Below are positions 30,772 through 52,004 of a stretch of DNA of 64,000 nt, in pieces. The notes under the pieces were generated by a model, which saw only the letters and a list, made by a program, of their open reading frames with translations, was not told the DNA's origin and made no database searches. The DNA is from Barthelona sp. PCE. Its lineage: Eukaryota. Both the position numbers and the translations under genes were made by a program. The DNA is taken from positions 620,001 through 684,000 of the forward strand of contig JAUFOR010000002.1 of the NCBI GenBank assembly GCA_040285745.1, read 5' to 3'. Each line of letters starts with the position of its first letter. Position 1 is the stretch's first letter.

Positions 30772-31609
30772 AGTATGGTTATATAAACACTGTCAGCGAC
30801 AACGCTATTGCTCCCAGCACGTGATTCAGACGCGATTGCCCGCATTGAAAGTTTGTACGTTAAGCTTACAAATTTTGCTTTTCTCTGTTTGCAATACTAA
30901 ATTATTTAGCGATCTACCACATAGGGGATGCATACGCAACACGCTACAGATCATATGATTTGCCTAACACTTAGTGGGACGTAGACCTGCCAGATGTTAT
31001 CGTTACATTAAGAACAAGCCTTACTGCAAGGGCAAGTACTGCCGTTCAGGCCCCGACACACGTATTAGACAGCACGAATGTGGTAACAAGAAGGCTGCTC
31101 CTGATATGTTCCCCAAGACCCTCATGCTTATCTCTATGGAGAAGGAGAACGTTACTTCCAACGCTCTTGAGGCTTGCCGTACCTGTGCTAACCGTTATCT
31201 CGTTAAGTACTGTCAAGGTGGTAGAACCGGTTTCGCTCTTCGTCTTCAGAGTTTCGGTATTTTCCTTAACCGTATCAATAAGACCCTTTCTTGTGCTGGT
31301 GCCGATAGACTTCAGTCTGGTATGCGTGGTGCTTACGGTCGTCCTCACGAGCGTATTGATCGTGTTTACCCTGGTAAGATCATTATGTCTGTCCGTGTCA
31401 AGGAAGGTGACGTTGATATCGCTAAGGAAGCTTTCCGTCGTGCCCGTATGAAGATTGCTGGTCGTCAAAAGATTGTCGTCTCCAAGAACTACGGTTTCAG
31501 TAACTACACTGAAGAGGAAATCATGGCTGCTAAGGCTGAGGGTACTCTTGAAAACTGCGGAACTCACTTTAAGATCCGTAAGCCTAAGGGCCCCATCCCC
31601 AAGAACTAA
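30772..31609 (+). CDS. RPL10: 60S ribosomal protein L10 (uL16); start codon split A|TG by an intron
   Basis: GRRPARCYRYIKNKPY...RINKTLSCAGADRLQSGMRGAYGRP. An in-frame TAA at 30965 blocks any upstream ATG. Joining A30772 to TG30975-6 restores M-G-R-R-P. Strong codon bias. Confidence 0.95.
30773..30974 (+). other. Spliceosomal intron (202 nt) within the RPL10 start codon
   Basis: GTATGG at 30773; CTAACACTTAG ending at 30974. The acceptor is well supported; the donor was chosen by its match to the GTATG of the other two introns. Confidence 0.7.
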
Positions 31610-31721
31610 ATAACGTTCATTGGTTAGTGGACAGGGTATTTTACCCACTTTTGTAAAAGTTTTCCACGTATATTTTTTTTTACTTTTGTTGAATGATAAC
31701 AAACAAGGATATGCAAAAAAT

Positions 31722-33806
31722 TTATTCAATAAAAGAACAGAGATCAATAACACGTGTGGGTTCAACATCAATCCTACCATGATGATCACGGAAATACCCA
31801 GCCATCGAATGATACGAACAAGAGGAAAAAAAATCCTCGACTGTGGTACCAAAACATTCCGTTTCTACTATTTCAGAACCGCTTGTGTGGTACCTTGTGA
31901 TGCTAAATATCTTTTTCTCCAAGTCACTGATTGGAACAATGCTGAAATCTCCCTTTGCATTGATAAAATGAGTAAATTCTCCCAAATCAACTAATTTAAC
32001 ACTTTCTGACCCGATAAAATATATTCCATCGCTAAATAATGCGATTTCTGCATCAACAAACGCAATAAATGAAGATCTTTCAACTGAACAAGCTCTGCTG
32101 TCAGTAAAGGTAAATTCAGCACTGCTGTGGTTGAAACTAACACGTGACTCCGTGTTAAAAGGATTAACAAATATATCTTTGTCGAGTCGACATTCTTCCA
32201 CCCACTTCGTACGGGAATCCCGTCTAAAAACTATGCGACAGCTCTTTGTAACAATAATAATGATATCCTCGGTCACATGCTCAATCCTTACCTTGCGGTC
32301 CCTTACCTCTCCGCTAAATATCAAATAACTTTTAGAATCTGCAAAATCATAGTACTCAAGCGTGGATAAAAATCCTTGCTCAATCCACCTAGAGTTGACA
32401 TGAACCAAACCTTCATCCAGTATTGACACGTATGGGCATTGATTGACAGAAATTTTTGTACGCTGAATACATACTGAAGGGTATTCCCCTTGCTCAAGAT
32501 TAAATTCCTTGATATTATAAATATAATCAGTTGCAATCATTCGCTTTCTATTAGATTTGTGCTGCGAAACGCAAAAGCATTCTCCACTTGATAACTGAAT
32601 ATGATGATTCAAAGTTTCGAACGATTCAATATTTTCGTATTCCCCCTTTTTCTTATCAAACATACACGTTTTGGCTGCTAAATCAACCAAAAGGATGCCG
32701 TACCGTGTGGTAAACAACAAAGAAGTGCTGAGGCACCCCAACAAATCCTTCTTCGAATCAACTCCTATCAATATTGATGAAAATGGTCGGAATATGTTAA
32801 CCCTACATATATTGTCATTAAAGATGAAGAACATGTCTTTGCACGTGTTTAAATAGTCAAATTCTAAAGAAAATTCCCGGGGAATCATGGATAATCGCTT
32901 GGAACATGAAACTTTCGTAAAACTAATTTTTTCATCCTTCAAAACAACAAAAATCCATGATTCCGGGTGTTTAGCCATTAAAACGCATTCTCTTTGAGAA
33001 ACTGATAGTTTCAAGAAGGATATTGCTTGCAACTGCAATTTGCAACTGGATAAGGCTGGGAAAAATTCTAACATATTTAAAGAATTTAATAATCCATCTT
33101 CCGCATATCTTGCAAAAAAACGTATGTACCCATCACTTTCATATATATTATCAATGAAACAATCTGTCGCACAACATCTTAGCATATATTCATCATTTCG
33201 GTACAGTTCTTCACTTATCAGGCAGTACTCTCCACCATCCCCCATAGTGAGGGTATGTGCTGTGACTACATCTCTTTTCTTGGTTACAATAAAACTGCCA
33301 ATAATCTGTATTCGACATTTGTCCCCAATAAACCAACTAAAAGAAATTTCTCCACAGTCATTAAGTCTGTGGACAAACCATGCTCCAGATTCCCGACATA
33401 TAAACGTCATTTCATCGATGTATTCTATCATTCTTAACTTTTCAGGAATTTTTATCCATCTCTTGCTTTCATGGATGAAATTACCATCTTCTAAGGCGTA
33501 GATGTGTAAATAATGTGGCCCACTCCTTTTAGATTTAGGATAAAAACGATTTGGATCTGCGGGAAACCGCTTCAAAATATATAACAAATTGCAATCATCA
33601 TCATCATATGAACCTACAATGGTGTGAACGCCAAATTCAGGACCACATACAGAAGGCTGAATGCCCTGCCCCAATGAGAATTCAAGAATAGGGTCACTAT
33701 TCACTCTTTCAATGTGAAAACTCTCTTTAGATGATGAAACCAACGAACAAGGTTCACCAAACACATCCTCAGGAATGTGGGTTGTTTGCCTTTTAATTCG
33801 AGGCAT
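31722..33806 (-). CDS. Hypothetical protein (~694 aa, beta-rich, no recognised family)
   Basis: Long uninterrupted ORF; first ATG (MPRIKRQ) at 33806. No motifs recognised. Confidence 0.6.
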   Translation of the reverse strand: MPRIKRQTTHIPEDVFGEPCSLVSSSKESFHIERVNSDPILEFSLGQGIQPSVCGPEFGVHTIVGSYDDDDCNLLYILKRFPADPNRFYPKSKRSGPHYLHIYALEDGNFIHESKRWIKIPEKLRMIEYIDEMTFICRESGAWFVHRLNDCGEISFSWFIGDKCRIQIIGSFIVTKKRDVVTAHTLTMGDGGEYCLISEELYRNDEYMLRCCATDCFIDNIYESDGYIRFFARYAEDGLLNSLNMLEFFPALSSCKLQLQAISFLKLSVSQRECVLMAKHPESWIFVVLKDEKISFTKVSCSKRLSMIPREFSLEFDYLNTCKDMFFIFNDNICRVNIFRPFSSILIGVDSKKDLLGCLSTSLLFTTRYGILLVDLAAKTCMFDKKKGEYENIESFETLNHHIQLSSGECFCVSQHKSNRKRMIATDYIYNIKEFNLEQGEYPSVCIQRTKISVNQCPYVSILDEGLVHVNSRWIEQGFLSTLEYYDFADSKSYLIFSGEVRDRKVRIEHVTEDIIIIVTKSCRIVFRRDSRTKWVEECRLDKDIFVNPFNTESRVSFNHSSAEFTFTDSRACSVERSSFIAFVDAEIALFSDGIYFIGSESVKLVDLGEFTHFINAKGDFSIVPISDLEKKIFSITRYHTSGSEIVETECFGTTVEDFFSSCSYHSMAGYFRDHHGRIDVEPTRVIDLCSFIE

Positions 33807-33966
33807 TGAAAAGGATGATAGAAGTAAACATATATTGCAGCTTAAAGTATGTTGCAGAATGAAAATAATGCGTAGATAATGATCACTAAGATACAACCAA
33901 TACGAAAGAAATGCTGTTCATATAATAAATAACACCAAAATACATAAAACAGTGACTTTATTATGA

Positions 33967-36606
33967 TTACAGAGTCTTGACAGCAACATCATTCTTGATG
34001 GTGTAGCCACGCTTCTCAAGGAAGGCAGCAGCCTGCTCAGCGTGTGCGGGAAGGTGACCATAGATGGTCTTGTGATTCTTACAAGCAGCAAAAGCTTCAA
34101 TAGACTCCATGAGCTGTGAACCAATACCCTCATTGGCAACGAGTCTGTCAACGACGAGAGCGAACTCAACGCCGTTATCACGCTTGGATAGACGAGCGAG
34201 AGCACAAAGCTTATCGTTCTTCTCAGCGACAAAAGCCATTTCGTAGTTGTAATCGACGAAACAAAGACCAGAAAGACCGGAATCAAGCTTCTCATTGATA
34301 GGGAAATCGTTGAAGAAGGAAGAGTAGACGCTGTTGGTCTCGAACTCAAGAGCTTGGATTTGATCATCGTCGGTGGGACGAATGGGACGAATAATGATAT
34401 CATTGTGCTCCTTAACAAACTCACGGGGGTAACCGGTGGCAATAGGAGCAATGACAAGATCTTCGGGGCCAGTAAGAAGGACACGGGCATCGACGGCTGT
34501 CAATTCCTCGGGGGAGATGAGGAGAGGGTTGATATCGAGCTCAGCAATCTCAGGGAAATCAACAACGAGGATGGAAAGATCAACGAGGATGCGCTCAAGA
34601 GCTTCAATATCACATGGCTTAGCACCACGGACACCCTTGAGAGCTTCAAAGATCTTTGTCTTCTCCATCAATTGACGGGCAAGACCGTGAGATAAAGGAG
34701 GAAGGCCAAGAGCAGTATCCTTAAGGACTTCGCAAAGAGTACCACCCATACCGAAGAGGAGGACAGGACCAAGTTCAACATCCATTGAGCAACCAAGGAT
34801 AAGCTCGAAAGCACCCTTTGTGTTGATCATCTTTTGGACAGTGACACCCAGAACGAGCTCATCAACTGACTTGTTACCGTAGTGACCACGAACCTTCTCA
34901 ACGTTCTCACGAATGAGGTGGAAAGCTGCAACGACTTCCTCACGGGACTTGAGGTTAAGTTGAACACCACCAACATCAGACTTGTGAGTAATGATCTCAG
35001 AGTGAATCTTGACGACACAAGGGTAGCCGATCTTCTCAGCCCATTCACCAGCTTCTTCAGGGGTGAGGGCGATCTCAGTGATACAAACGGGGATGTTGTA
35101 AGCAGCAAGAACCTTCTTAGACTCGTACTCAGAAAGAACCTTACGGCCATCAGCACGACACTGATCAATCATGCGACGAGCAGTCTCCTTATCATAGGTG
35201 ACGTCACGGGCATCGACGTAGGGCTCCTCGTACAAGTTACGGAGGTTAGAGTGATAACGGTTAATAATGTTAAATACCTCTGTGGCTTGGTCAGGGAAGG
35301 GGAAAGTAGGGATACCTGCTTCGCTGAGAAGACGAGCGCCTTCAGCAACGGCGGGACCACCCATCCATGAAGCGAGGACGGGAACTGGGGAGTTCTTGGC
35401 GTGCTCAATAACGGCACGAGCAGTACCAGTGGGATCGGTCATGTCTTGGGGAGTGAGGATGACGAGTGTACCATCGGAATCCTTGTTCTTGGCACATGCT
35501 GCCATAGTCTTGGCGTAACGCTCAGGACGGGAATCACCAATGACATCAATGGGGTTACCATGAGACCAGGTGTTGGGGAGGAAGGAGTTTAACTCATCCA
35601 TAATGGAGTCGATGGGTGCGAGCTTTCCACCACCGTTGACGAGAGCGTCGACAGTACAGACACCGGGGCCACCAGCGTTGGTAACAATGGTACAGGTGGG
35701 TTCACGAGTGATGTTACGCTTGAAAGGTTGCTTGGCAAGGATATCAGCTAAACCGAATAACTGAGCCATTTCACGGACACGGACGACACCAACGCGCTCG
35801 AGAGCGGCGTCAAGGGCGGCGTCACCACCAGAGAGTGAACCAGTGTGAGATTCTGCAGCAGCCTTGGATTCCTCGGAAGCACCACCCTTCAGGAGAATAA
35901 TGGGCTTACGGAGGGAGGTCTTACGGGCAGCAGCGAAGAAATCGTGGCCGAGAGCCTCAGCGTAGAGGACAATGGCGTCTGTGTTCTCGTCTTCACCGAA
36001 ATAGCTGACAAGATCACCAAAGGAAACGTCAGAAGCGTTACCAATGGAGATACAGGCGCTGAAACCAATATTACGGGTCTTGGCGTAGTTGATTGTGGAG
36101 GTACAGAGAGCACCAGATTGGGACAAAAGACAGATCCTACCAGGGAGGGTCATCTCGGATGAGAATGACGCGTTGTACTTGGAATCGGTACCATTGCAGA
36201 GAACACCGAGGGTGTTGGGACCGAGGATGGGGAACTTACCAGCAGCAGCAGAGATGAGCTCCTTCTCCAATTCCAATTCACCAACTTCCTTGAAACCGGC
36301 AGAGATGATGACGGCAGCACCGACCTCCTTCTCTGCACATTGTTCGATGACACCAACACAAAAACGAGCGGGAACAGCAACAAGAACAAGATCAATGTGC
36401 TCAGGAACCTCAAGAACAGACTTGAAAGCGGGAAGTCCGTAAATTTCAGGCTTCTTGGGGTTGATAGGGTAGATGACACCATCATAGGTAGCCTGGAGGT
36501 TGGTGACAATAACACCACCCAGCTTACCTTCACTGGCACCGACGACAGCAATTGACTTGGCCCTAAACATAGGGTCCAGACGTTTGTTGATGCTAAGGAT
36601 ATCCAT
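33967..36606 (-). CDS. ADP-forming acetyl-CoA synthetase (acetate-CoA ligase) fused to a C-terminal GNAT-like domain
   Basis: CoA-binding SIAVVGAS...YPINPK, GPNTLG, SQSGAL, SIGNASD, phospho-His motif ESHTGSL, TNAGGPG, NPIDVIGD. ATP-grasp HKSDVGGV, FGMGG, ELDINPL, AVDARV. GNAT tail IIRPIRPTD...EFALVV...EGIGSQLM. Strong C/T-ending codon bias. Confidence 0.93.
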   Translation of the reverse strand: MDILSINKRLDPMFRAKSIAVVGASEGKLGGVIVTNLQATYDGVIYPINPKKPEIYGLPAFKSVLEVPEHIDLVLVAVPARFCVGVIEQCAEKEVGAAVIISAGFKEVGELELEKELISAAAGKFPILGPNTLGVLCNGTDSKYNASFSSEMTLPGRICLLSQSGALCTSTINYAKTRNIGFSACISIGNASDVSFGDLVSYFGEDENTDAIVLYAEALGHDFFAAARKTSLRKPIILLKGGASEESKAAAESHTGSLSGGDAALDAALERVGVVRVREMAQLFGLADILAKQPFKRNITREPTCTIVTNAGGPGVCTVDALVNGGGKLAPIDSIMDELNSFLPNTWSHGNPIDVIGDSRPERYAKTMAACAKNKDSDGTLVILTPQDMTDPTGTARAVIEHAKNSPVPVLASWMGGPAVAEGARLLSEAGIPTFPFPDQATEVFNIINRYHSNLRNLYEEPYVDARDVTYDKETARRMIDQCRADGRKVLSEYESKKVLAAYNIPVCITEIALTPEEAGEWAEKIGYPCVVKIHSEIITHKSDVGGVQLNLKSREEVVAAFHLIRENVEKVRGHYGNKSVDELVLGVTVQKMINTKGAFELILGCSMDVELGPVLLFGMGGTLCEVLKDTALGLPPLSHGLARQLMEKTKIFEALKGVRGAKPCDIEALERILVDLSILVVDFPEIAELDINPLLISPEELTAVDARVLLTGPEDLVIAPIATGYPREFVKEHNDIIIRPIRPTDDDQIQALEFETNSVYSSFFNDFPINEKLDSGLSGLCFVDYNYEMAFVAEKNDKLCALARLSKRDNGVEFALVVDRLVANEGIGSQLMESIEAFAACKNHKTIYGHLPAHAEQAAAFLEKRGYTIKNDVAVKTL

Positions 36607-37113
36607 AGGAGTTAGTTATAGAAGTAAGATATTCTAAAGTAAGTTTTTCTTTCTTTTCCAAAATGTACTCTGGCTCCAGCTGTTTTTAGTAGGGGTCAGG
36701 TGTGTTTTGAAGGATAGAAATTGCTCAAAACCAATTATCTGATGAGATAATTTTTGAGATGTGAGATTGTTGCAGTGTGGGATAAATGTGTCTCCACTGT
36801 CTGTTTTCACAGCATGGTGGGTGAAATATATGCTATTTTTCTTTTTGGTCCTTCACATGTGAGGTAGATGAATTTTTTTTTAAATACAGTGAGGTTATCA
36901 AATGGTAAGTTCTGTTTAGAGGGGGAAACCATGTCACACAGTGCCAGTCATTTTAAATACGTTGAAAACTGCACTTTACGCGGACCTGCAGTTTTAAATT
37001 CTTTCTTTAAGGGCCTTTTTAAATTATGTAAATATTAATGTGCGAGATATTAACATTCACAGTTAGGGACAGAACAATCTTCTCATCATAGACTTCTTTC
37101 TTCTTTTTGAGTT

Positions 37114-37833
37114 TTACTTATACCTATTAACATTCCTTGGATGTTGCATGTTCTGCCTACGTTTCAAGAGTGTTAGTTTTCGCTCCTTAGCTTCTTTAAT
37201 GCTTTTTTCAACTGTTCTATTTTCTTTAACGAGGTGTTCATATTGTTCTTTAACTGATTTGTTCAACTGTGAATATTCATCACTTTTCTTCGTAATTCGA
37301 CAGATACATTCCTGTATATCACGCTTGGCTTCTTCAATGTTTGACTGAATATCTTGAAGAGTAAAGTCTCCAAGTTCGTCGTTTTCTTCACTCCCTTGTA
37401 ACTCTGAGCACTGCTTTTCGAGCTGCTTGATGTACTGAATGCGCTCATCATCTTTCATATGATCTTTTATCCAGTTCTGCCAGTCTTTCAAAGCACTTTT
37501 TCTTGTTGTAAATTCGGTCTCCTGCTGTTTCATTTGCTGAAACAGATTTGCGATCGTTTGGGTATCAGATCTGACCTTTTCTGTGAGCATAGGCAACTCA
37601 ACAGAGATTTTGTTAAAACGAGTTTGGATTTCTGCACATTTAGCCTCTAAACTAGCACGGTTTTGCTTCAATTCGTATAACGTTAACGTCAGCATTCTCT
37701 TTGTTCTTTCAATTTCTTCTAAACGCTTCTCCAGCATCTTACCCTTGATAAAATGCAGTTCATTTGCACTTTCAAAGTCCCCAAGTCTTTCTGTGAGATT
37801 ATCCACGAGGGATACAATATCTAATGGATCCAT
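37114..37833 (-). CDS. Coiled-coil protein
   Basis: ATG at 37833 (MDPLDIV); E/K/Q-rich heptad composition throughout. Confidence 0.65.
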   Translation of the reverse strand: MDPLDIVSLVDNLTERLGDFESANELHFIKGKMLEKRLEEIERTKRMLTLTLYELKQNRASLEAKCAEIQTRFNKISVELPMLTEKVRSDTQTIANLFQQMKQQETEFTTRKSALKDWQNWIKDHMKDDERIQYIKQLEKQCSELQGSEENDELGDFTLQDIQSNIEEAKRDIQECICRITKKSDEYSQLNKSVKEQYEHLVKENRTVEKSIKEAKERKLTLLKRRQNMQHPRNVNRYK

Positions 37834-37996
37834 ATTTGAATAAAGTGAAAAAGAAGAAAGTACTGAAAACAGGTTTTTGTAATATATCAAAATTCAAATT
37901 TGAACAGCGTAATGCACCTTTTTCCGTCACATGCGTCCCATGTAAACAACTTTGAATGTTGGGAGTTGATTTAAATCAAAGAAAACTAAAAAACAT

Positions 37997-39946: not shown

Positions 39947-40001
39947 AATCAGCAAAAATGCAAATAAAAACCTCTGTAGAAAGGGTTAAAAATTTCAATA
40001 T

Positions 40002-40132
40002 TAGACTTCAGCTTATCGGGATTTTAAGTTCGGATTTCCTGCATCCCAAGTATGGGAACGGAGCCTACTCTACTAATAAATAATAAGTATTTGAAGAACT
40101 TTCCAGTCATTTATATTAGAGGGTATATTAAG
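40002..40132 (+). repeat. Left terminal inverted repeat of the hAT element
   Basis: TAGACTTCAGCTTATCGGG...GGGTATATTAAG is the reverse complement of 41407-41537 with 3 mismatches. Confidence 0.95.
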
Positions 40133-41271
40133 AAAAATTTATTACTGTGATAGAACATGGATTTGTTTTCTATTTTCAACCCTTTTCTCTATTAATTATG
40201 TCTGATCCTTATAGGGACATTTTGAAAATGATAGCAACTCCATTGATAGGGTTGTATGATTAAATTGAGTGTATTGAATCCAAAGAAAATATTTCCCCAA
40301 ACACATCGATTTGGAAGCTTTGGTGCAAAACTGACAATGGTCTAGAGTTTGTACTTTTTGAATACACAGTTAAAAATACCAGCATCGATGTGTGGAACAC
40401 AAAAATGCGAAAGATATTGCCTCTCTTACGCTATGAACCTACTTTTGATATTATGAGTGAAAGAATCTGTAATGCACGTAGGTTGGTAAGAAAGAAAGTT
40501 AGTAATGTACGTTCAAGAACACTGACCAAATCGAAACTTGTATATGCTGGCTATCATCTATTCAGTTTAATGCCATTGAGCCAGTATGTATCGGACAAAG
40601 AACGGTTCAAACATGTTCTATGTTCGATCAGGAACGATGATAAATTAACTTTTGTCGAAAATCTTGACATGGAAAGATTGGAGAGACTATATGTTCAGTA
40701 CCTGAATGGATGCAATTCCGAAGAGGCTAAATATGCTGAGAACTTTAATCCAAATGCTGAGCTAAATAAGTTCAACACTAATATAGGCGCTGCAACAACA
40801 AGAAATTTAACTTCAGGTATATATTACGATAGCAGAAAAGGAATATGGACATGCACGAACGAAGAAGTCATCAGAAGTTTGAATTTTCATGGAATTTAGA
40901 TCGCAAATTGTGAAAATCACTTGTTCATCCCGCCAGTCAAAGAAAAATGCAGCGTACCCAATCAACTGATTGCAAATATGTTACAATGCAATACGTATCA
41001 GATGCAGTGCTTTATGGTTTTCATATGTCAGGGTTAGAAAAATGTTCTGAAATGTTCTGCATTTTTTAATATCGTAAATCAATATCGTAATACACCAGCG
41101 GGCAATGCTGGTGTCGAAAGAGCGTTTTCTAAGATTGGACAAATGTTTAAAAAAACACAGTATAATCTTAGCCAGATTAATGAATTAAATTTGGTATATT
41201 TGAACATGTTAAGTCACTTACCGTTCATTAGTTATGAAGATTTAGCTTTTTTAATGAAAAATGAAGAGTGA
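40132..41271 (+). pseudogene. Degenerate hAT transposase (C-terminal part)
   Basis: One reading frame runs from the inner edge of the left TIR to TGA 41269-41271, interrupted by TAA 40261, TAG 40897 and TAG 41035. It includes track ORF 40390-40899 and ends ...AFFNIVNQYRNTPAGNAGVERAFSKIGQMFKKTQYNLS... Confidence 0.75.
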
Positions 41272-41406
41272 ATTTTTTTCTTCCATATTCAATGAAATAG
41301 ACAGTTGTTCACTATTGTTGATGTTACATTCGCATATAAGACCTAAAAATGATACTCAATTGTTAATGTAAAAAAATGATAAAAAATGTGGATTCCTTTT
41401 TCTGCA

Positions 41407-41537: not shown

Positions 41538-41598
41538 TTCAATATAGAATAACTCCAATAAACCGGTGTTTACTAACGTTTATGTGCAACTTTTTCGC

Positions 41599-42720
41599 TT
41601 AATCGAGGTAGAATTCAGCTCTTATTAATTGCTTATACTCTTTACCGAATACCTCCAAATAGTTTTCACTATTCTCCACCAGGAAGTTTAATTTCATATG
41701 GTATTTCTTCTCAAAAACTTTAAACTTGAGTTGTTCAAACAAAAGACAACTTTGAAACAAATTATCAAACTCAATATACAAAACAAAAATTTTCTCTTCA
41801 TTCTTAAAGAAATACTTGTAGTTATTCGGTTCCAATTTATGCAATTGGCACATCTTATTAATGCTATCAATAAATGCTTCCTCAGTGAAACCAGGAATGC
41901 CAAGTATTACTTCTATAACTAACACTTTGCTAGGGATATTAATATCGTGATCTGTTACTCTTTGACCTGCACGTGATTGGCTTAGTCTGTTAATATAAGA
42001 AGTATCACTTGCAGCAAAACAAGTTAGTTGATGGTCGCCTATTTTGAACCCTCTTAACAACGAAATAGCTTCAGTGAAGAGATCTTTATCAATGAATTCA
42101 AATAAACAATGCTGTGTTGGCTCATTAATGATTTGTAATGCTTTAATACTTCCAATACTACTCAGAAATTTCTCTAAATTATTCCTAGTGAGAAAACTCG
42201 GAAAACCGTGAACACAAAGGCAGTATGGGTTAGGTTGCACGCGTGCACTCACAAGAAGATCCATAGAAATCTCACCTAACATGTCTTTTGCTGGTTTGTA
42301 ATCTCTTGGACGATTGACTAAGAGCGGATAGTTGCGCAACACGGCGCCGTTGAGCTCCAGGCCCTTTGTTGCGCTGTCTACATCCCTGAACTCAATAAAA
42401 GCGTAACCATTATTGATTGTTACCGAAACAACTTTTGCTTTGTGGCCGCCACGTTTGTTTAACTCGCTCACAAAGAAGGATCCTAATTCTTGCTGGTGCG
42501 TATCTGGTGGAATTCTTCCGACATATAAACGACGAGATTGAATCAAACTCACGTTATTGTGTTGAAGTAAAATCTTCTGTATAACTTCTGGGTTTGATGC
42601 TACTACCTCAGCTACCGAGCGATTTTCAAATCCTGCAGGTGCTTGATCCCAACCAGTCTCATGATGCTCTTCCTTCTTCTTCCGGCCTCTTCTGTTCCAT
42701 CTTTTTGGCTTGTATACCAT
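41599..42720 (-). CDS. U2AF2: Splicing factor U2AF large subunit (U2AF65/U2AF2-like), divergent, no RS domain
   Basis: ULM-like GWDQAPAGFE, RRM1 SRRLYVGRIPP...GYAFIEF...NRPRDYKP, a second RRM, and a degenerate third (UHM-like) domain. First ATG at 42720. Confidence 0.78.
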   Translation of the reverse strand: MVYKPKRWNRRGRKKKEEHHETGWDQAPAGFENRSVAEVVASNPEVIQKILLQHNNVSLIQSRRLYVGRIPPDTHQQELGSFFVSELNKRGGHKAKVVSVTINNGYAFIEFRDVDSATKGLELNGAVLRNYPLLVNRPRDYKPAKDMLGEISMDLLVSARVQPNPYCLCVHGFPSFLTRNNLEKFLSSIGSIKALQIINEPTQHCLFEFIDKDLFTEAISLLRGFKIGDHQLTCFAASDTSYINRLSQSRAGQRVTDHDINIPSKVLVIEVILGIPGFTEEAFIDSINKMCQLHKLEPNNYKYFFKNEEKIFVLYIEFDNLFQSCLLFEQLKFKVFEKKYHMKLNFLVENSENYLEVFGKEYKQLIRAEFYLD

Positions 42721-43431
42721 ATATGAATGCCCTAAAATGAAGAGAAATACGGAAAAGTGTGAAAATGGAGTTTTTTGTAAAAACAACTTCTAACTCAAAA
42801 AAAAAGACTCGAAATTACAAATTATCATTGTATGCATTCACACCCAACCACAACATGTAAGAAAAAAAAAGTCAAACATATCTGACCACACCAATCTTAT
42901 TCAGGTACTCTACTTTCCCTACTATTGAAAATATTCGCCTCCAAAAGCTTATTATTTGAACAATTAATGTTGATTTCTGTTTATAATTGTTGATAAAATT
43001 CTTTTAAACCCAACTTCAGGCAAATACTCACAAATTTCCACATACTTACTTAACTTTATGGCTTAAATCATAATTTAATATCATAATAGGTCCCTTGAAT
43101 TATAAATTTCTATAAATACTCTTCTATTCTTCCAAAAAAAGAAAATATTCTGTCCAAATCAGTTTAATGGAACATATGATGTGCAACATTAGAATATACA
43201 GCATATATTAACCGTAAATGTGTGAAAATATTGTGTTACATTGTTTCAACAAGAACCGGCGTTTCACGCAATATTATAGATACTGTTAATGCTGACTTCA
43301 ACAGGTTTTCTCCATATAACAACCACCAAAATTGTGTATTTTGAGAAGTAAAATATAGAAACAGGATGAATATGGCGTTTCAACGAATATCACCCATTTC
43401 TGCATATTTTTCGAATTCATTAAGTTTCACA

Positions 43432-44116
43432 ATGGTATGTTTCGTACATAGTCCCGAGCGTAAGTACTTACAAGTAATAATTCACTGGTGGAGATACTTT
43501 CGCTTCAGAACAACCCACAAACTCTCACATTCAGTTCTATCTTGCATTAGGTGACGCTCACATTCCATACAGAGCTGCTAACATTCCCGAGGCACTCTGG
43601 AACCGTATTTCTAAGGGCAAATATTCACACATCTTCTTTACTGGTAATGCGTGCTCTCTAGACGTTGTTGCCGATCTCAAGAAGCTCTGTAACTCTGTTC
43701 TTGTTGCCAGAGGAGATTTTGACACAGAGAATTATAATGAAAGTATTGTGACATCCTTAACTGATGATCTCAAGGTTGGTGTAGTCCATGGACATCAGAT
43801 TATTCCATGGAATGATGAGGAAGCACTTGCTATGTACCAACGCCAGCTTAACTGTGATGTTATGATTCATGGTAGCACACATACCCCCAATCATTTTGTT
43901 AAGAACAAAAAACTGTTTTTAAACCCCGGATCATGCACAGGCGCCTTCCATACACAGAATCCCGAATCAAAACCATCATTTATGTTACTTGATGTTGTTT
44001 TTGATGTTGTACAATGGTACACTTACACATATGATGCTGAGTCTGATTCTGTTAATATCTCATGCCACTCCTGGACCAAGGGCACCGACGAAATCCGCAG
44101 CGAAGAACTTGAGTAG
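43432..44116 (+). CDS. VPS29: Retromer subunit VPS29 (194 aa after splicing)
   Basis: Spliced product M-FYLALGDAHIPYRA...FFTGN...RGDFD...VVHGHQIIPWND...HGSTH...NPGSCTGAF...PSFMLLDV. The track ORF 43748-44116 covers only the C-terminal part. An in-frame stop lies upstream of 43535, so an intron is required. Confidence 0.93.
43435..43534 (+). other. Spliceosomal intron (100 nt) immediately after the VPS29 ATG
   Basis: ATG|GTATGT ... CTCACATTCAG|TTC; phase 0 splicing restores the VPS29 N-terminus. Confidence 0.82.
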
Positions 44117-44383
44117 TCTTTTTTTTAATAGTGTCAGGTAGTAAACTCGTGTTTTTTACTTTTTGTGGTTTCAGTCAAGGAAAACTATCTAAAATTTTGA
44201 ATGAAGGTGTCACTATGATGGTAAAACTACCCTAAAAAACTTGCTTCAACATTTATCTTTCATTTCAAGATTTCTGAGCTTTTAATTTTATCTGCCCTGT
44301 CTTATTTTTCTTGTTGTCTTATTTTTTTCATTTAAAAAGCAATTTTTTCGTAGTGTAATAATTTTCTATTCTATTATATATTC

Positions 44384-44890
44384 ATGTTTAAAGTATGTAT
44401 CTTCGGCCTTGAGGGTGGCTTTGCTATGCATCGCATCGCAGGTGCACTATGTCATGAGAAAACATATAAGGGTGTTATATGGCCTGCTTTTCGAGATTAT
44501 AAAAGTAATTGTGGAACTGAGATTCGATTCTGGCAGGAATATTCCAGAAGAGATGGGTGCCATCGTATGTGCTCACGTATGTGGGAACAAGCAGACGTTT
44601 TAGTTGTTGCCATAAATTCAATTGATGAAGCTGAATTTTATATTGATGATCTGAGGTCAAGAGCTGCTATAACGTGTCCGCGAATCCTTCTTTCAACAAA
44701 TCCAGAAATACCTGTTACTAGTTTAAAAGAAGCAATTGTTTTTGATGCTAGTTTCGATGTTTTTCTGGACCTCAGTGAAAGGAACGCTGGCACAGAAGAC
44801 GAGTTTATTACATTTACTCCTGTTATGGAGTGTATTAAATCGTTTATTCCTGATAAATCTGAACCATTAGAAATTGAAGTTCATGAATAG
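44384..44890 (+). CDS. Highly divergent small-GTPase-like protein (possible pseudo-GTPase)
   Basis: Ras/Rho-like order of elements: MFKVCIFG (beta1/G1), IWPAF (switch I), IRFWQE (at the LWDTAG position), RMCSRMWEQADVLVVAINS, PRILL. Canonical GKS/T, DxxG and NKxD are absent. Confidence 0.45.
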   Translation: MFKVCIFGLEGGFAMHRIAGALCHEKTYKGVIWPAFRDYKSNCGTEIRFWQEYSRRDGCHRMCSRMWEQADVLVVAINSIDEAEFYIDDLRSRAAITCPRILLSTNPEIPVTSLKEAIVFDASFDVFLDLSERNAGTEDEFITFTPVMECIKSFIPDKSEPLEIEVHE

Positions 44891-45140
44891 TTTCTTTTTT
44901 TCTTTTTTTGATCATTAGCATGTGTAAATAGTCACATTATTAACTGTTAATAACTTTTATTCATCAAAATTCGGATACAAACAATGTAAAGAAAAGCAGG
45001 TGCACAAATACGTTAATTTTCCGTAATTCAGAACCATAATTGAAGTTAAATTATACTGTTCTACCAAATATTCGCTGATAAAAAACTCTATGATGTTTAC
45101 AAATATTTTTCCCATATCTAGTTCCTCTATTGCAAAAGAT

Positions 45141-47390
45141 ATGCAAGATCAGTTTTTCCAGATAGAGGAGGCCACGGGCGTCAGATTGGCGTATTCAGCT
45201 TTCCCAAATACTAAAGAGGTTGCAAATAAGCTGCCAATTCCATTGAGCGCATTGTTCACACCGTTGAAACATGTCCAGGGCCTGAAATGTCTCCAGAACG
45301 AGCCTAACCCGTGCTCATGTGGCGCAATGCCAAATCCTTACTGTGGACTTGTTGGGAATCAACAGTGGAGGTGCGTAATGTGCGGTCAGATGAACCCCAT
45401 CCCCCCACAGTTTGCCCAAAACTTCGAACCTTTCCGAAACGACGCTCTAACTATTGAATACGATTTGGGTGAAGCTCCTCTCAAACCGTTTTATTTCTAC
45501 ATTGTAGACACCACTCAGAGTGAGAAGAACCTCAAGGCACTCAAGGAGGTGCTGCTTGAAAGCATCCTTTACCTTCCTGATGATGCCCTTGTTGGTGTCA
45601 TGAGTTACAACGCAACGATTCAGTTATGGGACCTGGACAGCGGTGATATCTCCCGCAATTTCACATTCAATGCTGAGGATATCCCTTCTGTCGAAGAGCT
45701 TATTAACCAGCTACATCTCTCTGACATGCGATCGTATTCTAGATTCATGAAAAAGGCTGGTGAATGCGCGTTTGCTCTCCAAAATATATTCGATAACCTT
45801 CCCAAGGCATGTTGGACAGTTGCAGAACAGTCTTTCCCAAGAAGAGCAACAGGAGCTGCGCTGGCGACTGCGCAAGCTTTACTTGATGTTATTGCTGTTA
45901 AACAAGCGGGTCGTGTTATGCTCTTCACTAGCGGGCCCAACACATATGGAGACGGTGCTTTTGTTGCGCTTGAACAGTCAAAGACTGTTCGGTCCTTCTA
46001 TTCAATCAAGAACGATCAAAACATGGGCCCAACAAAACGGTCCACCAGGTTTTATTCACGTCTAGCTGAGAAGTTCTGTGACCAAGGCATCATTGTGGAT
46101 GTATGGTCCGGGTCTATTCGTCAATCTGGACTCTATGAAATGAGGAATATCATGAGCAAGACTGGAGGCTATTGTTATATGACTGAACACTTTTCGGATC
46201 CAGAGTTCAAGTCTTCGTTCCTTAAGACTTTTGCTGGAATTGGTGGTGTTGGATCACAGATGCTCTATGGTAAGCTTCCTGACTCTCCGCTTGAAGAAGT
46301 CGTATCAGTTCCTACTGCTTTCCAAACAACATTATCACTTCGTACTTCACCAGGTATCACAATATGCGGTGCCCTTGGCAACTGTTATTCGATGGGTGCA
46401 AAGACAGCCAACGTTTCCCACCGCGAAGTTGGTGAGGCAGGCACATGTATGTGGCAGTTATGTGGCTGCGATCCCAGGAATACGATCGCCTTCTTGTTTG
46501 ATGTGGAGAACGTTGAACGTGATGTGAGTGAGCATAAATATCTTCAGTTCACGTCGATGTATACTCATCCTACTGGTAAAATTGTCAAACGTGTCATCAC
46601 CTTAGCTGTTTTATATGCAGGACTCGACAAGGTAATTGAGCTATTCGACCAAGAAGCTGCTGCTGTGATTTTGGGTCGTCTAGTTGCTGAACGTAAGAGA
46701 CAAGATCCCTCAGAGGAGGTGATCCAAATGATAGATTCTCGGCTCGTCAAGCTCCTTCAGATGTCGTGCGTCTATCAGCCCAACGTCCCCGCGTCTATGA
46801 CTGTCCCCGCATCCATGGCTGTGTTTGCTCAGTTTATGTTTTACTTGCGAAAGAGTACATTGGTTACGAACTTCAACGAATCTCCGGATGAAGCTACTTT
46901 CAAGGCCCTGACGTACAACAGGAGCAGCGTAACTGACTCCTTGTCGATCTTCCAACCTTCTCTGACAAGATACAACATGCAAAGTATCGACTCCGTTTTG
47001 CTAGATGTCCGCAGTCTCACGGACGACTGTATGCTGTTGCTGGACACCTTCCACACCGTCCTCATCCATTACGGAGAGACATACAAGCAGTACAGGCAGC
47101 AAGACGTCCATCTCAGAGCTGATTGCTCTTGGTTTGCAGACCTGATCGAATCATCAACGTCTGAAGCCGAACGTATTCTCGCGGAGCGCTGGCCAACTCC
47201 CAGGATGATCTATACGTATCCTGGACATAGTCAAGAGCGATTCCTGAAGAGCCAGTTAAACACGAATGATAACTTGCCAACTGGTGGTAGTGAAGCCTTT
47301 TCTTCCACAAAGAGGATCGTGAAAACTCATGATGCATCGTTTGAGCAGTTTATGAGTCGTCTACGCGAGGCCGTAACCAAGTTGCAGTGA
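45141..47390 (+). CDS. SEC23: COPII coat subunit Sec23
   Basis: IEEATGVRLAYSAFP...LFTPLK, Zn finger CSC...NPYC...WRCVMC, vWA domain FYIVDT, RATGAAL, RVMLFTSGP, FDQEAAAV, NESPDE, LLLDTF, SQERFL. ATG 45141 is preferred over 45090. Confidence 0.95.
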   Translation: MQDQFFQIEEATGVRLAYSAFPNTKEVANKLPIPLSALFTPLKHVQGLKCLQNEPNPCSCGAMPNPYCGLVGNQQWRCVMCGQMNPIPPQFAQNFEPFRNDALTIEYDLGEAPLKPFYFYIVDTTQSEKNLKALKEVLLESILYLPDDALVGVMSYNATIQLWDLDSGDISRNFTFNAEDIPSVEELINQLHLSDMRSYSRFMKKAGECAFALQNIFDNLPKACWTVAEQSFPRRATGAALATAQALLDVIAVKQAGRVMLFTSGPNTYGDGAFVALEQSKTVRSFYSIKNDQNMGPTKRSTRFYSRLAEKFCDQGIIVDVWSGSIRQSGLYEMRNIMSKTGGYCYMTEHFSDPEFKSSFLKTFAGIGGVGSQMLYGKLPDSPLEEVVSVPTAFQTTLSLRTSPGITICGALGNCYSMGAKTANVSHREVGEAGTCMWQLCGCDPRNTIAFLFDVENVERDVSEHKYLQFTSMYTHPTGKIVKRVITLAVLYAGLDKVIELFDQEAAAVILGRLVAERKRQDPSEEVIQMIDSRLVKLLQMSCVYQPNVPASMTVPASMAVFAQFMFYLRKSTLVTNFNESPDEATFKALTYNRSSVTDSLSIFQPSLTRYNMQSIDSVLLDVRSLTDDCMLLLDTFHTVLIHYGETYKQYRQQDVHLRADCSWFADLIESSTSEAERILAERWPTPRMIYTYPGHSQERFLKSQLNTNDNLPTGGSEAFSSTKRIVKTHDASFEQFMSRLREAVTKLQ

Positions 47391-47583
47391 GTGTAAATAT
47401 AGTCACCTTTTTTTAATAATTTTTACACTAATTGTTTTGAAAACACATGCTCGAATTGTTCAAGGATAAACTTTCTGAAATGCCCTTGAAAAAAAAATGC
47501 GAACTTATTGGCGTAGTAAACAGTTTGCTTGCTCTTAATAACCCCTTATAAACACCCCCTGTAACATATAAAAATACCCCAAT

Positions 47584-47859
47584 ATGTCTGATATCCGCAA
47601 CTCAGTAGAAGAAGCCATAGACACAATAATTAAGGTGCTAGAAACTCCTTCTTATTCAGATCACAACTATGAGCGTGAAAAGAAACACAACATCAGCAAA
47701 GAAAAGAAGGAGCTTCGCAATAGATGCATCCAAAATCAGAACCCTAAGAACATGAAGAAAATTCAAAAACATCATCTCAAATACCGTCAAAATATCACTG
47801 TAAGACATTATGATTACTCTTCTCAGCCATTTCAGCGTTCTCAAAAGAGAAGCAGCTAA
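47584..47859 (+). CDS. Small basic hypothetical protein (91 aa)
   Basis: ATG-initiated ORF filling the gap between two genes; K/R-rich. No motif recognised. Confidence 0.4.
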   Translation: MSDIRNSVEEAIDTIIKVLETPSYSDHNYEREKKHNISKEKKELRNRCIQNQNPKNMKKIQKHHLKYRQNITVRHYDYSSQPFQRSQKRSS

Positions 47860-47945
47860 AATAAACAAAAAACAAACTTGTTACAGGTTAAAATACCCAT
47901 TACAGATTGTTTTTTAAATTTCTTTGACTGTAATAGAGCAATAGG

Positions 47946-49007
47946 ATGCCTGCAAAGAAGAAGAAGGGCAAAAAATCAAAAAAAAAGTCTCAGAAGAAGA
48001 TTGTCGTTAAACCGCGTTTCGGAAATCTGTCTATTGGGCAAAAAATGACACAAATGCGGATTCTCTACGCAAATAACTGTACAGAGCTGGGGGAAGAACC
48101 ATGCAAAGCCATCTTAAGTGTTTTTCGTGGTTTATTCAACTCTAAAAAGAAAGATGAGGAGCCAACGCTGCTGGAGCGCTTGCAGGTTGTGAACACGGAG
48201 CTCAGTGTAGTTCAAATTCACTCTTTACTCACAACACTCGTTGATTATCCATATCTAAAGTCCCTAATATTTGTTAATTGTAATCTCACAGATGACTGCT
48301 GCATCCCGCTGTCACACTACCTCAACAGCAACCTGGGTATTGAAACGTTAATACTAGACGGCAACCAGATAACAGCAGACGGTATAACACATGTATGTCG
48401 AGGTTTAGTCAACAACACATCTTTGAAGAACCTCTCGGTGTCACACAATCCGCTTGGTGACCGTGGATGTCTATTATTGACGAATATGTTGAAAGATAAT
48501 TTATCAATTGAAGAGATATCTTTGAGACACTGTCAAATCGATGTAACTGGCGGCGTAACGTTGTTCAGGACGCTCCTACCGCAGCCACTAACAAGGATAA
48601 AGCACATTGACATGAGTGGGAACCCTATCACAGATATTAGTTTAGTAGCAATAGGTGAAACAATACAGTTAAATAAGAGTGTAGAAGCAATAATTCTGAG
48701 TAATATCAGCCTGACTAATCAAGATACGTCAATAGAAATCTTTTTAAATGGTCTTACTCAGAATTCAACTTTGAAGCAGTTGGATTTAAGCCATAATCTA
48801 ATGACTGAAGAGCAAGGTATATTCTTTACAGAGCATATGAAGAACATTAAGAATATTGTTAAGTTGAGAATGCCTCATGTGATTGGGAAAACAGCACTGA
48901 AAAAATTGATTACAATCTTAGAAAAGAACATTAAGGCTGCTAAACCTTCAAAGAAGAAGAAGGGTAAAGGTAAAGGAACTAAGAAAAAGAAAAAACCAAA
49001 GAAATAA
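47946..49007 (+). CDS. RNI-like leucine-rich repeat protein with lysine-rich termini
   Basis: Repeats such as LILDGNQITADG, LSVSHNPLGDRG, ISLRHCQIDVTG, IDMSGNPITD, LDLSHNLM. Poly-K N- and C-termini. Confidence 0.85.
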   Translation: MPAKKKKGKKSKKKSQKKIVVKPRFGNLSIGQKMTQMRILYANNCTELGEEPCKAILSVFRGLFNSKKKDEEPTLLERLQVVNTELSVVQIHSLLTTLVDYPYLKSLIFVNCNLTDDCCIPLSHYLNSNLGIETLILDGNQITADGITHVCRGLVNNTSLKNLSVSHNPLGDRGCLLLTNMLKDNLSIEEISLRHCQIDVTGGVTLFRTLLPQPLTRIKHIDMSGNPITDISLVAIGETIQLNKSVEAIILSNISLTNQDTSIEIFLNGLTQNSTLKQLDLSHNLMTEEQGIFFTEHMKNIKNIVKLRMPHVIGKTALKKLITILEKNIKAAKPSKKKKGKGKGTKKKKKPKK

Positions 49008-49008
49008 A

Positions 49009-50016
49009 TTATTTTCGTTTCCTCGATTTAATAATTTCAATCTGCTTTCTAGTTGGCACAAATATGGTTGATGGAATGAAAAATTCACTTCTGAACTTGG
49101 TTTTCCTGATAATATCATCATTTATCGCCCGCTTAACAATATCCCACAGCGATCCTGTATACTTAAAAAATGAGGTAAATTCGTATTTTTCCTCCTTTTC
49201 AGCTTCTTTCTCTTGTATCTCCACCTTTTCCTTACTCTCTTCTGGCTCTGCACGTAAAACAAGCTTGCTTTTAACTGTTTCAGGCTGTTTCTGACCAGCA
49301 ACCAAATGTAAGACAGATTTCTTCGATTTTCTATCAATTTCCTCAACGTGTGTGATCTCTGTGAACGAAAACTCGCCTGGGTCCTTGATTATCTGGTTCG
49401 TTACCATCGGATGACACATTAAAACTAGCTCATCATCTCCGACTTTAATGGTATCAACCATACTGGCTGATGAATCAAAAAGTTGTCCATTCATGTATCG
49501 TTCTACCTTGCTGCGGCGTTCTGAAAGAGAAAATGCCGTGTACTGAGGTACAAGGAAGGATATTTCTGTCAATCCCTCTAAATGACATTCCAAATCTTCA
49601 GCTAGTTTCTCAAGGCCATAGTATTGGGCCTCCTCCCTGAATCCTGTAAGGAATTTATGAGTTCTTTCCACAAAAACCTCTTTGTTTCTTAAATAATTCA
49701 AAATATAGCGGAAATAGTGTGGATCCCTATCTATTACGACACGATCACCCTCGCCTATCTCAAGAAGTAAATCGTCAAAGTAAGAAGGTGATACATGAGT
49801 AAAAATTGATTTTTTTGTTGCAAAAACAACACCACCAACAACAAAATCAATAACATCACGCATGGGATCATCATTTGGTGGTGGTGGTGTAAAATTTATC
49901 CCTGTAGGTGCTAAAGCACTGTCAAACTTAATACTTTGTTCTGCCCAATCGCTTTTATATTCTGATGTTGTGCTTATCACATCCATATTGTCCAATGTTT
50001 CCAGTAAAGAATTCAT
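49009..50016 (-). CDS. BTB/POZ (KCTD/T1-type) domain protein
   Basis: IDFVVGGVVFATKKS...SYFDDLL...VVIDRDPHYFRYILNYLRN...FREEAQYYGL. First plausible ATG at 50016. Confidence 0.85.
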   Translation of the reverse strand: MNSLLETLDNMDVISTTSEYKSDWAEQSIKFDSALAPTGINFTPPPPNDDPMRDVIDFVVGGVVFATKKSIFTHVSPSYFDDLLLEIGEGDRVVIDRDPHYFRYILNYLRNKEVFVERTHKFLTGFREEAQYYGLEKLAEDLECHLEGLTEISFLVPQYTAFSLSERRSKVERYMNGQLFDSSASMVDTIKVGDDELVLMCHPMVTNQIIKDPGEFSFTEITHVEEIDRKSKKSVLHLVAGQKQPETVKSKLVLRAEPEESKEKVEIQEKEAEKEEKYEFTSFFKYTGSLWDIVKRAINDDIIRKTKFRSEFFIPSTIFVPTRKQIEIIKSRKRK

Positions 50017-50338
50017 TTTAGCCAATAAACCAACTACTAATAATGAAAGAAGTGAAAAATTACAAACCATCAACATTTGGTTGACTTTTGTGGGTGATTC
50101 TTATTTACACTTGCTCGTGGTAGTCATAGACTTAAAGGATTTGAAGGATTTCAAGCTTATTTTTGCGCAACGACTATCAATCCTATATATACATCATACT
50201 ACCAAAAATAAATCATAAGGTTTATTGTAAATTACTTTAAAAAGTAATGGGAGGAGGGTAATTGAAAGGGAAAAGGGTTAAAGGAAAAGGTAAACTAAAA
50301 GGGAATGTATATGCAGGATTTTGATGACGTGTGTGTTT

Positions 50339-50542
50339 CTAGAAAGCCATCACTGAGGGATAGTTTGTAAATTCTATGGGCTCTGATGGAATATCTTGAT
50401 CCAAGGAGGCCATATTATTGTAAAGCGAATGTAGACTATCGCTTGTGTAAAACAACTCCCCCGCATACCCTACACTTGTGGTATTGCATGTGGACGGAGG
50501 TATATCCGTTACCCTTGGCAAAATTGAGACAAAATAGCTCAT
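50339..50542 (-). CDS. Possible 67-aa microprotein
   Basis: ATG-initiated ORF, more GC-rich than its AT-rich flanks, in an otherwise unusually long spacer. Confidence 0.3.
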   Translation of the reverse strand: MSYFVSILPRVTDIPPSTCNTTSVGYAGELFYTSDSLHSLYNNMASLDQDIPSEPIEFTNYPSVMAF

Positions 50543-50939
50543 GTTAAAAGAAGTAAAATTTAAAACATTACAAATTCGGTTTCTAATTCTTCTAACATTA
50601 GTATTACCTATTGTTGGGATATTTATACTTCTTTACACCTCTAATTCCGACAAAAAGGATAATGCAAAAAAATATCAGGAATGATGTAATATTTCAGGTA
50701 AAAGACAGGAACTTAAACCAAATTCGGAATTATTATGCTTATTTTGTATCAATAACGATGTTTAAATTCACTAACAGATGCGTATCTCAACCAAAATCCG
50801 GTTCTATAGTATTTACACATTTTCTTCCAATAATTTATGGATATTTGACGAGATTACAAGTATTTCAGTTCTGAAACATGTGTAAAAAATCTTCAAAAAT
50901 AAGTTTTCAAAAAAAAATTGAGTTTTACACGTAAATAAC

Positions 50940-52004
50940 TTACTCCTCAGCGGGAGCGGGTTGCTCTTCAGCGGGCTCGGGTTCAGGAACAGTTTCCTCA
51001 ACCTTCGGCTCATCTTCTTCAACAACTTCATTCATTTCCTCAATGATCAAATCAATGTATCCTTGAATGACGGAGGAGATTTCGCTACCCATTCTGGTAT
51101 CAAAAGTGTGCTTGGATTGGGCGTGCTCTTCTCCAGCTGTAAAAGCAAAAGTACGAGGACTGGAACCCCAACTTAAAACATCATTGTAAGCAAAGGTTGC
51201 AAGGACTTCCTTAGAAGGGTTGCGAAGGACATGGATGCCCTGTACGTTGAGAGAGATAAAGACCTTAATACCCAACTTACGGTTGCCATCACTGACGTAC
51301 TTAACTGGGAAGAAGGTAGATCCATAGTAATGCCATGTTCGACAGACCTCAAGGTATGCCTTCTTGCATTCCTCAGGTGACTTATCAACAAGCTCTTGGT
51401 GCTTCATAAAGATAGCCTCTTCCCAAGCTTGAGGAGAGCGAGAAGGAAGCAATTGCTCAGGAATGAAGTTCTTAATGGTGCGAGTGAGATAACCAGGCTT
51501 GTGGTGCGTGGGGTTGTGGTTGCCAAAGTCAATCTGGACACAATAACTGGCCAGAAGGATAGCTTCATCAGCAGTGGGCTCATATCTTGAAGCAAGAACA
51601 TCTTCACGAACCTGAGCGAAAATGAAAGTCTCAGCAGACGGATCATCGCATGGAAGTTCGGGGTGCATAAAGAAACGTTTCCTTAAAAGGAAATAACAAT
51701 CAGGATCGTTGTTCCATGAATTTTTAACCTCTCCAGGGAGAACATCTGGACGGAGGTAACTCTGCCACTCTCTGTTAACCTCGTAAAGGCAGAAAGTGTT
51801 GCTTTCGTGCTGAATCTCCAGCTTCTCTACGACAGCGGCCAGCAAAACTTCAACTGTGTCTGTCTTTTGAATGGGGATGGTTGTTGAACCTCCATCGAGG
51901 AAGAAAACCTTGCACAAAACACTAAACTAGGTGTAAGTCATTTCAATTTATGAAAAGCGCGTCCTTGCTGCTTTAAGAGGGCGAGGCCGTCCAATGCATA
52001 CCAT
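50940..52004 (-). CDS. Stand-alone FERM domain protein with acidic tail (329 aa after splicing)
   Basis: M-FSVLCKVFFLDG...FLLRKRFF...FAQVREDVL...EAILLASYCVQIDFG...YLEVCRTWHYYGSTFF...YNDVLSWGS...EISSVIQGYI. An in-frame TAG at 51929-51927 requires an intron. Confidence 0.9.
51927..52001 (-). other. Spliceosomal intron (75 nt) immediately after the FERM-gene ATG
   Basis: On the minus strand: ATG(52004-52002)|GTATGC ... CTTACACCTAG|TTT. Confidence 0.85.

Follow-up and report, generated by a model that had tools for sequence, protein, structure and literature searches.

Introns at the start codon of three genes in a 64-kb stretch of the Barthelona sp. PCE genome whose other complete gene models are single-exon

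In a stretch of 64,000 nucleotides (nt) of the Barthelona sp. PCE genome (GenBank assembly GCA_040285745.1, contig JAUFOR010000002.1, positions 620,001 to 684,000 of the forward strand), referred to here as the window and numbered from its first base, we find 24 complete gene models. Twenty-one are single-exon and three contain an intron, which in each case lies at codon 1. The three genes are RPL10 (uL16), VPS29 and a gene for a FERM domain protein, and each first exon gives only 1 or 3 coding nucleotides. We consider it probable, taking both parts of the statement jointly, that the three are ordinary U2-type introns with GT-AG boundaries, cis-spliced and of the metamonad kind, and that survivorship under intron loss best accounts for their position. 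The genome of Barthelona sp. PCE comprises 8 contigs with 10.2 Mbp, has a G+C content of 40.3% and 5064 predicted proteins, and is the smallest known for a free-living eukaryote (PMC11316075). In the main text of that paper the word 'intron' occurs once, in the methods, and the intron landscape of Barthelona is seemingly undescribed in the main texts of the literature searched, although the supplements of the genome paper may hold such data.

In RPL10 the last base of exon 1 (30772, +) is the A of the start codon and the sole coding base in that exon. A phase 1 intron of 202 nt (30773-30974, +; GTATGG...CCTAACACTTAG) interrupts codon 1, and exon 2 (30975-31609, +) contributes TG, 209 codons and TAA. 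The conserved frame opens only at 30968, after a TAA, and its first in-frame ATG is at 31106. Joining the A to the TG restores M-GRRPARCYR, whose ten residues M1 to R10 do not vary across 21 aligned uL16 sequences, with the exception of R7. The spliced product of 211 amino acids (aa) is identical to the public protein P0003 and matches the Pfam family Ribosomal_L16 (3.6e-24). A second donor of the form A^GTATG (30591-30595, +; a caret marks an exon-intron boundary) lies 384 nt from the same acceptor, and the same protein results from either donor, 30591 or 30773. The uL16 protein (30977-31606, +) has at most 54% identity to any other uL16 in the collection, with 53% for the best foreign protein match, a divergence that is very high for uL16 and fits a long-branch lineage.

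The other two introns follow directly after the ATG, in phase 0. In VPS29 the start codon forms the final three bases of exon 1 (43432-43434, +) and is followed by an intron of 100 nt (43435-43534, +; GTATGT...CTCACATTCAG) and by exon 2 (43535-44116, +; 193 codons and TAG). Here the conserved frame is open from 43481, with its first in-frame ATG at 43832. The spliced product has 194 aa, and the public protein P0001 is identical to M plus exon 2. Exon 2 matches solved VPS29 chains with an expectation value (E) of 1.6e-38, as well as the Pfam family Metallophos_2, and residue 3 of the query pairs with residue 4 of the 182-aa VPS29 chains, which indicates that exactly one residue, the Met, is missing from exon 2. 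The FERM gene lies on the reverse strand, with its start codon again the final three bases of exon 1 (52002-52004, -), an intron of 75 nt (51927-52001, -; GTATGC...CTTACACCTAG) and an exon 2 of 328 codons and TAA (50940-51926, -). The terminal TAG of this intron is itself an in-frame stop, so that the conserved frame opens at 51926, and the next in-frame ATG is at 51668. The spliced product of 329 aa is matched by the public protein P0123, which is identical to M plus exon 2. It is a stand-alone talin-head-like RA/F1-F2-F3 module with Pfam matches to RA_2 (profile positions 3-93 on residues 3-84), FERM_M and IRS/PTB; its first domain begins at residue 3-6, its alignment with the talin-1 head (2.4e-28) runs from residue 6, and it is without a close relative in the protein collection. 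In all three genes removal of the intron reopens the frame with the conserved protein start, and the next in-frame ATGs sit 44-117 codons into exon 2. A sequence-only reading of this DNA had placed three introns at the start codon and had held that an in-frame stop 5' of the conserved coding sequence leaves splicing as the only route to initiation; reading and splicing the sequence confirms the three introns at the stated coordinates, with the frames opening where given above.

The three introns share their signals. All have GT...AG boundaries and the extended 5' splice site GTATG, with a pyrimidine as the sixth base in two of them and GTATGG in RPL10. At the 3' end all carry the motif CTNACAYYYAG, in which the branch point is fused to the 3' splice site and the branch A lies 7 nt from the junction. 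The chance level of this arrangement was estimated from 200 dinucleotide-preserving shuffles of the 64-kb window. For the 11-mer CTNACAYYYAG the window has 4 occurrences where 1.04 are expected, a count that 6 of the 200 shuffles also attain. GTATG followed by the 11-mer within 400 nt occurs 5 times (0.23 expected; 5 reached in 0/200 shuffles), and GTATG preceded by A or ATG and followed by the 11-mer occurs 4 times (0.075 expected; 4 reached in 0/200), these counts including two extra donors 5' of the RPL10 acceptor and one 28-nt pair inside an open reading frame (ORF). A genome scan for A^GTATG and ATG^GTATG followed by CTHACAYYYAG had been proposed along with the sequence-only reading; the counts given here, made with CTNACAYYYAG on the window, place the arrangement far above chance.

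The remainder of the gene set was compared with public annotation by exact-sequence look-ups of simple ORFs, of which 30 were queried and 21 found. Eighteen other complete genes are public as ORFs running from the first ATG to the stop codon, and 3 more are public from a downstream ATG. The look-ups cover coding-region introns of complete genes, so that introns in the 5' untranslated region (5'UTR) are invisible to them and a gene cut at 1-1881 is excluded. The unbroken ORFs include examples of 6.1, 6.5 and 8.6 kb, the largest at 15653-24277. The expectation of an otherwise intronless gene set with ORFs of up to 8.6 kb unbroken is thus upheld, since 21 of the 24 complete models are single-exon. 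Elsewhere in the window, intergenic GTATG occurrences beyond the three donors have no convincing acceptor at a sensible position. A fourth strict 3' motif (5374-5384, +) has a donor at 5357, and the resulting 28-nt candidate (5357-5384, +; GTATG...CTGACATTCAG) was rejected: it lies in the ORF of an Ank-kinase, its length is not divisible by 3 and in the public protein it is read through. This stretch is either a chance occurrence or a rarely used tiny intron like the type B introns of 23-26 nt in Trichomonas. Among 76 intergenic ORFs of at least 35 aa there is no Pfam match above the curated cut-off, and two matches are sub-threshold.

The public models come from a pipeline that combined RNA sequencing (RNA-seq) with HISAT2, GeneMark-ET, AUGUSTUS and PASA (PMC11316075), which lends the three gene models indirect RNA support. 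The three public proteins that are identical to the spliced models are all from one contig of 2,128,580 bp. One might nevertheless suppose that no splicing takes place, that the models are artefactual and that translation begins at a codon other than AUG or at an ATG further downstream. RPL10 does have an in-frame GTG (30974-30976) directly before the GGA of Gly2. However, this GTG arises automatically from the sequence AG^TG, and neither VPS29 nor the FERM gene has such a codon; starting at their next ATGs, 43832 and 51668, would delete the conserved domain starts. The supposition would also have to accommodate three independent perfect pairs of donor and branch/acceptor motifs at the right place, an arrangement reached in 0/200 shuffles, and a one-base initial coding exon, which is unlikely to have been called without an RNA-seq intron hint. 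We therefore regard the absence of splicing as extremely improbable.

The sequence 5' of the genes suggests what the first exons may look like. TTTCAC is present in 9 of the 24 upstream regions of 70 nt against 0.81 expected, at 7-48 nt 5' of the ATG, and TTTTCAC in 7 of the 24 against 0.4 expected. The hexamer is a candidate initiator or core-promoter element, and we take it to resemble the Trichomonas initiator. In Trichomonas core promoter elements lie near the ATG and 5'UTRs are short (PMC6260720). Initiator-like TTTCAC is found 7 nt 5' of the VPS29 ATG (43425-43430, +) and 13 nt 5' of the FERM gene ATG (52012-52017, -), and the looser pattern TTT[CT]A[CT] is represented by TTTTAC 22 nt 5' of the coding A of RPL10 (30750-30755, +). 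Were transcription to start at the A of TCA, exon 1 would measure about 6 nt in VPS29, 12 nt in the FERM gene and 19 nt in RPL10, and the motif positions thus suggest tiny first exons. We envisage a pre-mRNA that would start with a very short exon 1, made of a short 5'UTR and A or ATG; the spliceosome would join this mini-exon to the remaining coding sequence, and translation would begin at the AUG that is rebuilt or joined in this way. Splicing would be obligatory and most likely constitutive. Elsewhere in the window the public models of a histidine kinase (7567 to 7612), Sec24 (45090 to 45141) and a BTB protein (50076 to 50016, -) skip one or two upstream in-frame ATGs in favour of a later one, which fits very short 5'UTRs. 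A TTTCAC-type motif follows the skipped ATGs in the genes for the histidine kinase and the BTB protein; Sec24 is without a match to the upstream motif pattern and has, by eye, TTTACA 3' of the skipped ATGs.

Under uniform placement the chance that all three introns fall at codon 1 is about 3/636 x 3/585 x 3/990. This is vanishingly small, and it is fair to infer a strong positional bias. We think it likely, with the same confidence as stated at the outset for the two parts together, that the bias reflects survivorship: the genome would have lost nearly all of its introns, and those at the start codon would be the survivors. Recombination with reverse-transcribed mRNA would delete 3' and internal introns first, and it needs exon homology on both sides. 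Where only a handful of transcribed bases lie 5' of an intron there is almost no 5' homology for recombination, and we infer that such an intron would be the last to be deleted. A model of intron loss mediated by complementary DNA (cDNA) and biased toward the 3' end has been described (PMC1626468). Selection for 5' introns that enhance expression may contribute.

Several observations weigh against this reading, either as to the ancient retention of the positions or as to the introns themselves. Metagenome contigs were scanned with the 21-sequence uL16 alignment, and among the best 80 of 452 confirmed relatives there is no A^TG split; the ATG is contiguous in 70 and an intron is found at codon 4/5 in 10 (about 6 distinct). 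Because MGRRPARCY was among the two patterns used and the ranking put long contiguous matches at the top, this is weak evidence against a shared RPL10 position. In yeast the 5' intron of VPS29 comes after 49 bp, not after the ATG (PMC2139870). The branch motif is CTAAC in one of the three introns, and the other two, CTCAC and CTTAC, are off canonical. For RPL10 the donor may be either 30773 or 30591, and we infer the transcription starts and the lengths of exon 1 from the upstream motif only. The sample, finally, is three introns in 64 kb, or about 0.6% of the 10.2-Mb genome. The claim of extreme positional retention in the sequence-only reading accordingly stands in part: the bias is strong, with all three introns at codon 1, and the retention of ancient positions is unproven, given the RPL10 survey and the yeast VPS29 intron. 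In the human VPS29 gene the first exon may end at the ATG. As to the loci found in the survey, the intron lies at codon 4, about 1 nt before the start of the match, in L012, L013, L023, L024, L026, L052, L060, L064 and L067, and directly before Pro5 in L063. In L052 the sequence reads ATGGGTCGCC^GTACGT...CAG^GC. Codon 4/5 is thus another 5'-proximal intron position in uL16, different from A^TG.

The same two comparisons, with the metagenomic RPL10 loci and with yeast VPS29, can be turned in favour of recent gain, in which the ATG would have served as a preferred target, proto-splice-like or of another kind, for introns inserting at it or close by; the bias would then be one of insertion and not of survival. 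Nielsen and Wernersson discussed ATG^G as a possible proto-splice site (PMC1626468). However, exon 2 opens with T in all three genes (TGG, TTC, TTT), where a MAG^G proto-splice site would have G. Apart from their splice motifs the introns have no sequence in common, and their lengths are unequal (202, 100 and 75 nt), so that no recently spread element is evident. Intron gain is rare in intron-poor lineages. We consider recent gain unlikely, though more probable than either the absence of splicing or a regulatory role for the introns.

A regulatory role was part of the sequence-only reading, which saw in splicing an on/off gate. The splicing of start-codon introns would be switched on or off and would so control the ORF that begins at the AUG, as in self-inhibiting yeast ribosomal protein genes. 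The unspliced RNAs indeed cannot yield the three proteins. In unspliced RPL10 RNA the first AUG sits within the 5' splice site (GU-AUG-G) and opens MVI-stop, and unspliced VPS29 and FERM RNAs would give peptides of 40 and 18 aa. The yeast gene RPL30 is autoregulated at splicing. Autoregulation at this level is documented for yeast ribosomal protein genes (PMC4838235, PMC2095825), and those of the Rpl22p type resemble the genes studied here in that a 5'-proximal intron must be removed for the gene to be expressed (PMC4838235). Autoregulation of this type is the form in which a splicing gate is known. However, losing the product when an intron is retained is a general property of introns, whatever their position; a retained intron with a stop or a frameshift blocks almost any protein, and the effect is therefore no evidence for regulation here. 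In the Rpl22p and RPL30 cases a conserved RNA structure is bound by the gene's own product, whereas no such structure was detected in the three introns: none folds better than its shuffled versions (z = -0.35 for RPL10, -1.07 for VPS29 and -0.29 for the FERM gene), and Rfam gave 0 gathering-level matches in the window, introns included. The minimum-energy fold of the RPL10 intron pairs its 5' end with the bases just 5' of the branch motif, in a fold that is overall not significant. Two of the three genes are non-ribosomal and without an obvious common regulon. In Yarrowia, moreover, start-codon introns are the most efficiently spliced and their host genes the least variable in expression (PMC13309789). 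The idea of a gate is not borne out by the generic effect of retention and the ordinary folds, and we judge it very unlikely.

Introns at the start codon have been described before, as has extreme 5' bias, in animals, fungi, plants, Encephalitozoon, Yarrowia and Spironucleus. In vertebrates, arthropods, fungi and plants there is a peak of phase 0 introns between codons 1 and 2, and start codon introns are enriched in genes for short, conserved and ribosomal proteins (PMC1626468). The VPS29 and FERM introns, being in phase 0, belong to the class of Nielsen and Wernersson; that of RPL10, in phase 1 inside the ATG, falls outside it. In the genomes described by these authors start-codon introns form a small peak among many others, their relative frequency reaching a few per cent at the most, as opposed to three of three in the window. 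The host proteins here are a ribosomal protein of 211 aa (RPL10), a conserved protein of 194 aa (VPS29) and a protein of 329 aa without close relative (FERM), and they come from three genes only. Encephalitozoon cuniculi, which like Barthelona has a compact and intron-poor genome, shows extreme 5' intron bias at the ATG (PMC6349667). Its introns of about 25 nt are, however, mostly in ribosomal protein genes of a parasite, whereas those described here have 75-202 nt and belong, in two cases of three, to non-ribosomal genes of a free-living organism; the splice motifs also differ (PMC6349667). Mikrocytid introns are 16-17 nt long (PMC10245619). In Yarrowia lipolytica the 5' splice site of 42 introns comes immediately after one of the three start-codon bases, A, T or G (PMC13309789). 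Since this class takes in all three positions, it covers the split ATG of RPL10. The Yarrowia start-codon introns have top splicing efficiency and lie in the genes with the highest expression, and the branch point is very near the 3' splice site, as it is here; they are, however, a small share, 42 of the 2421 introns counted (561 + 42 + 1700 + 118), the 5' splice site is GTGAGT and the distance from the branch to the 3' splice site is 1 nt (PMC13309789).

The splice signals are of the kind known from other metamonads. The type A pattern of Trichomonas vaginalis, GYAYGY N{41,178} RCTAACACAYAG, shares with the introns described here GTATG(Y), a CTAAC-like branch motif fused to the AG and the 7 nt between branch A and junction, and the lengths of 75-202 nt are near its range (PMC6260720). 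Compared with Trichomonas, Giardia and Spironucleus, the introns described here have a less strict branch motif (CTAAC, CTCAC, CTTAC) and a YYY tail in place of CAY (PMC6260720, PMC6679479, PMC12316389). The introns of T. vaginalis occur in all phases, with 9 in 5'UTRs, and unlike those in the window are not concentrated at codon 1 (PMC12316389). Rps4 of Spironucleus vortens has a start codon intron, according to the same metamonad papers (PMC6260720, PMC6679479, PMC12316389), and in Giardia the median distance between type A introns and the start codon is 61 bp (PMC10711314). The new elements here are the lineage, the non-ribosomal nature of two of the three hosts, and the proportion of three in three within an unselected 64 kb with 24 complete genes. 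The finding thus adds one lineage and two non-ribosomal genes to a pattern known in microsporidia, yeasts and diplomonads.

Whether most or all surviving coding-region introns of this genome lie at or directly after the start codon, behind first exons of about 6-20 nt, is a wider proposition that we put forward tentatively, with somewhat less confidence in it than against it. That all three introns of one window share this position makes a high fraction across the genome plausible. If it is true, about one gene in eight would have a start-codon intron, many of these genes being non-ribosomal, and massive intron loss would have filtered the introns to the one position that is beyond the reach of cDNA-mediated deletion. 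On a genome-wide scale this would offer an unusually clean natural test of 5' intron survival, setting mechanical protection against selection for expression, and would be a case of splicing from cap-proximal mini-exons. A gene finder that requires an ATG at the start of the ORF would shorten or overlook roughly one gene in eight in this genome.

The window also holds other features. (A/T)GTAAA occurs within 80 nt after the stop codon in 12 of 25 3' flanks against 1.53 expected, for example at 7542, 31652, 44923 and 47392 and, on the reverse strand, at 50929. It is probably a polyadenylation signal, and presumably resembles the Giardia signal AGTRAAY. Genes are packed extremely tightly: in the convergent pairs at 12051/12053 and 49007/49009 one base separates the stop codons, and the other intergenic spacers measure 19-863 nt. 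An ORF of 180 aa without Pfam match (15116-15658, +) shares a few bases with the end of a BEACH gene. Its product (15116-15655) is absent from the public protein set with both starts tried, and the ORF is probably unannotated. A gene of 164 aa with no function assigned (40405-40899, +) has a paralogue of at least 90% identity on the same contig and is flanked by inverted copies of a 14-nt word containing GTATG, at 40050 (+) and 41489 (-).

Two genes stand out by their domain composition. The gene at 33967-36606 (-) encodes an 879-aa fusion of CoA_binding, Succ_CoA_lig and ATP-grasp_5 with a C-terminal GNAT acetyltransferase, the N-terminal part being a region like the NDP-forming acyl-CoA synthetases. 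We take this architecture to be that of the bacterial Pat/YfiQ protein acetyltransferases, and the gene may be of bacterial origin. The product of the gene at 7612-12051 (+) is a histidine kinase of the hybrid type that carries two PAS domains, HATPase_c and a receiver domain, encoded here in a eukaryotic genome of very small size.

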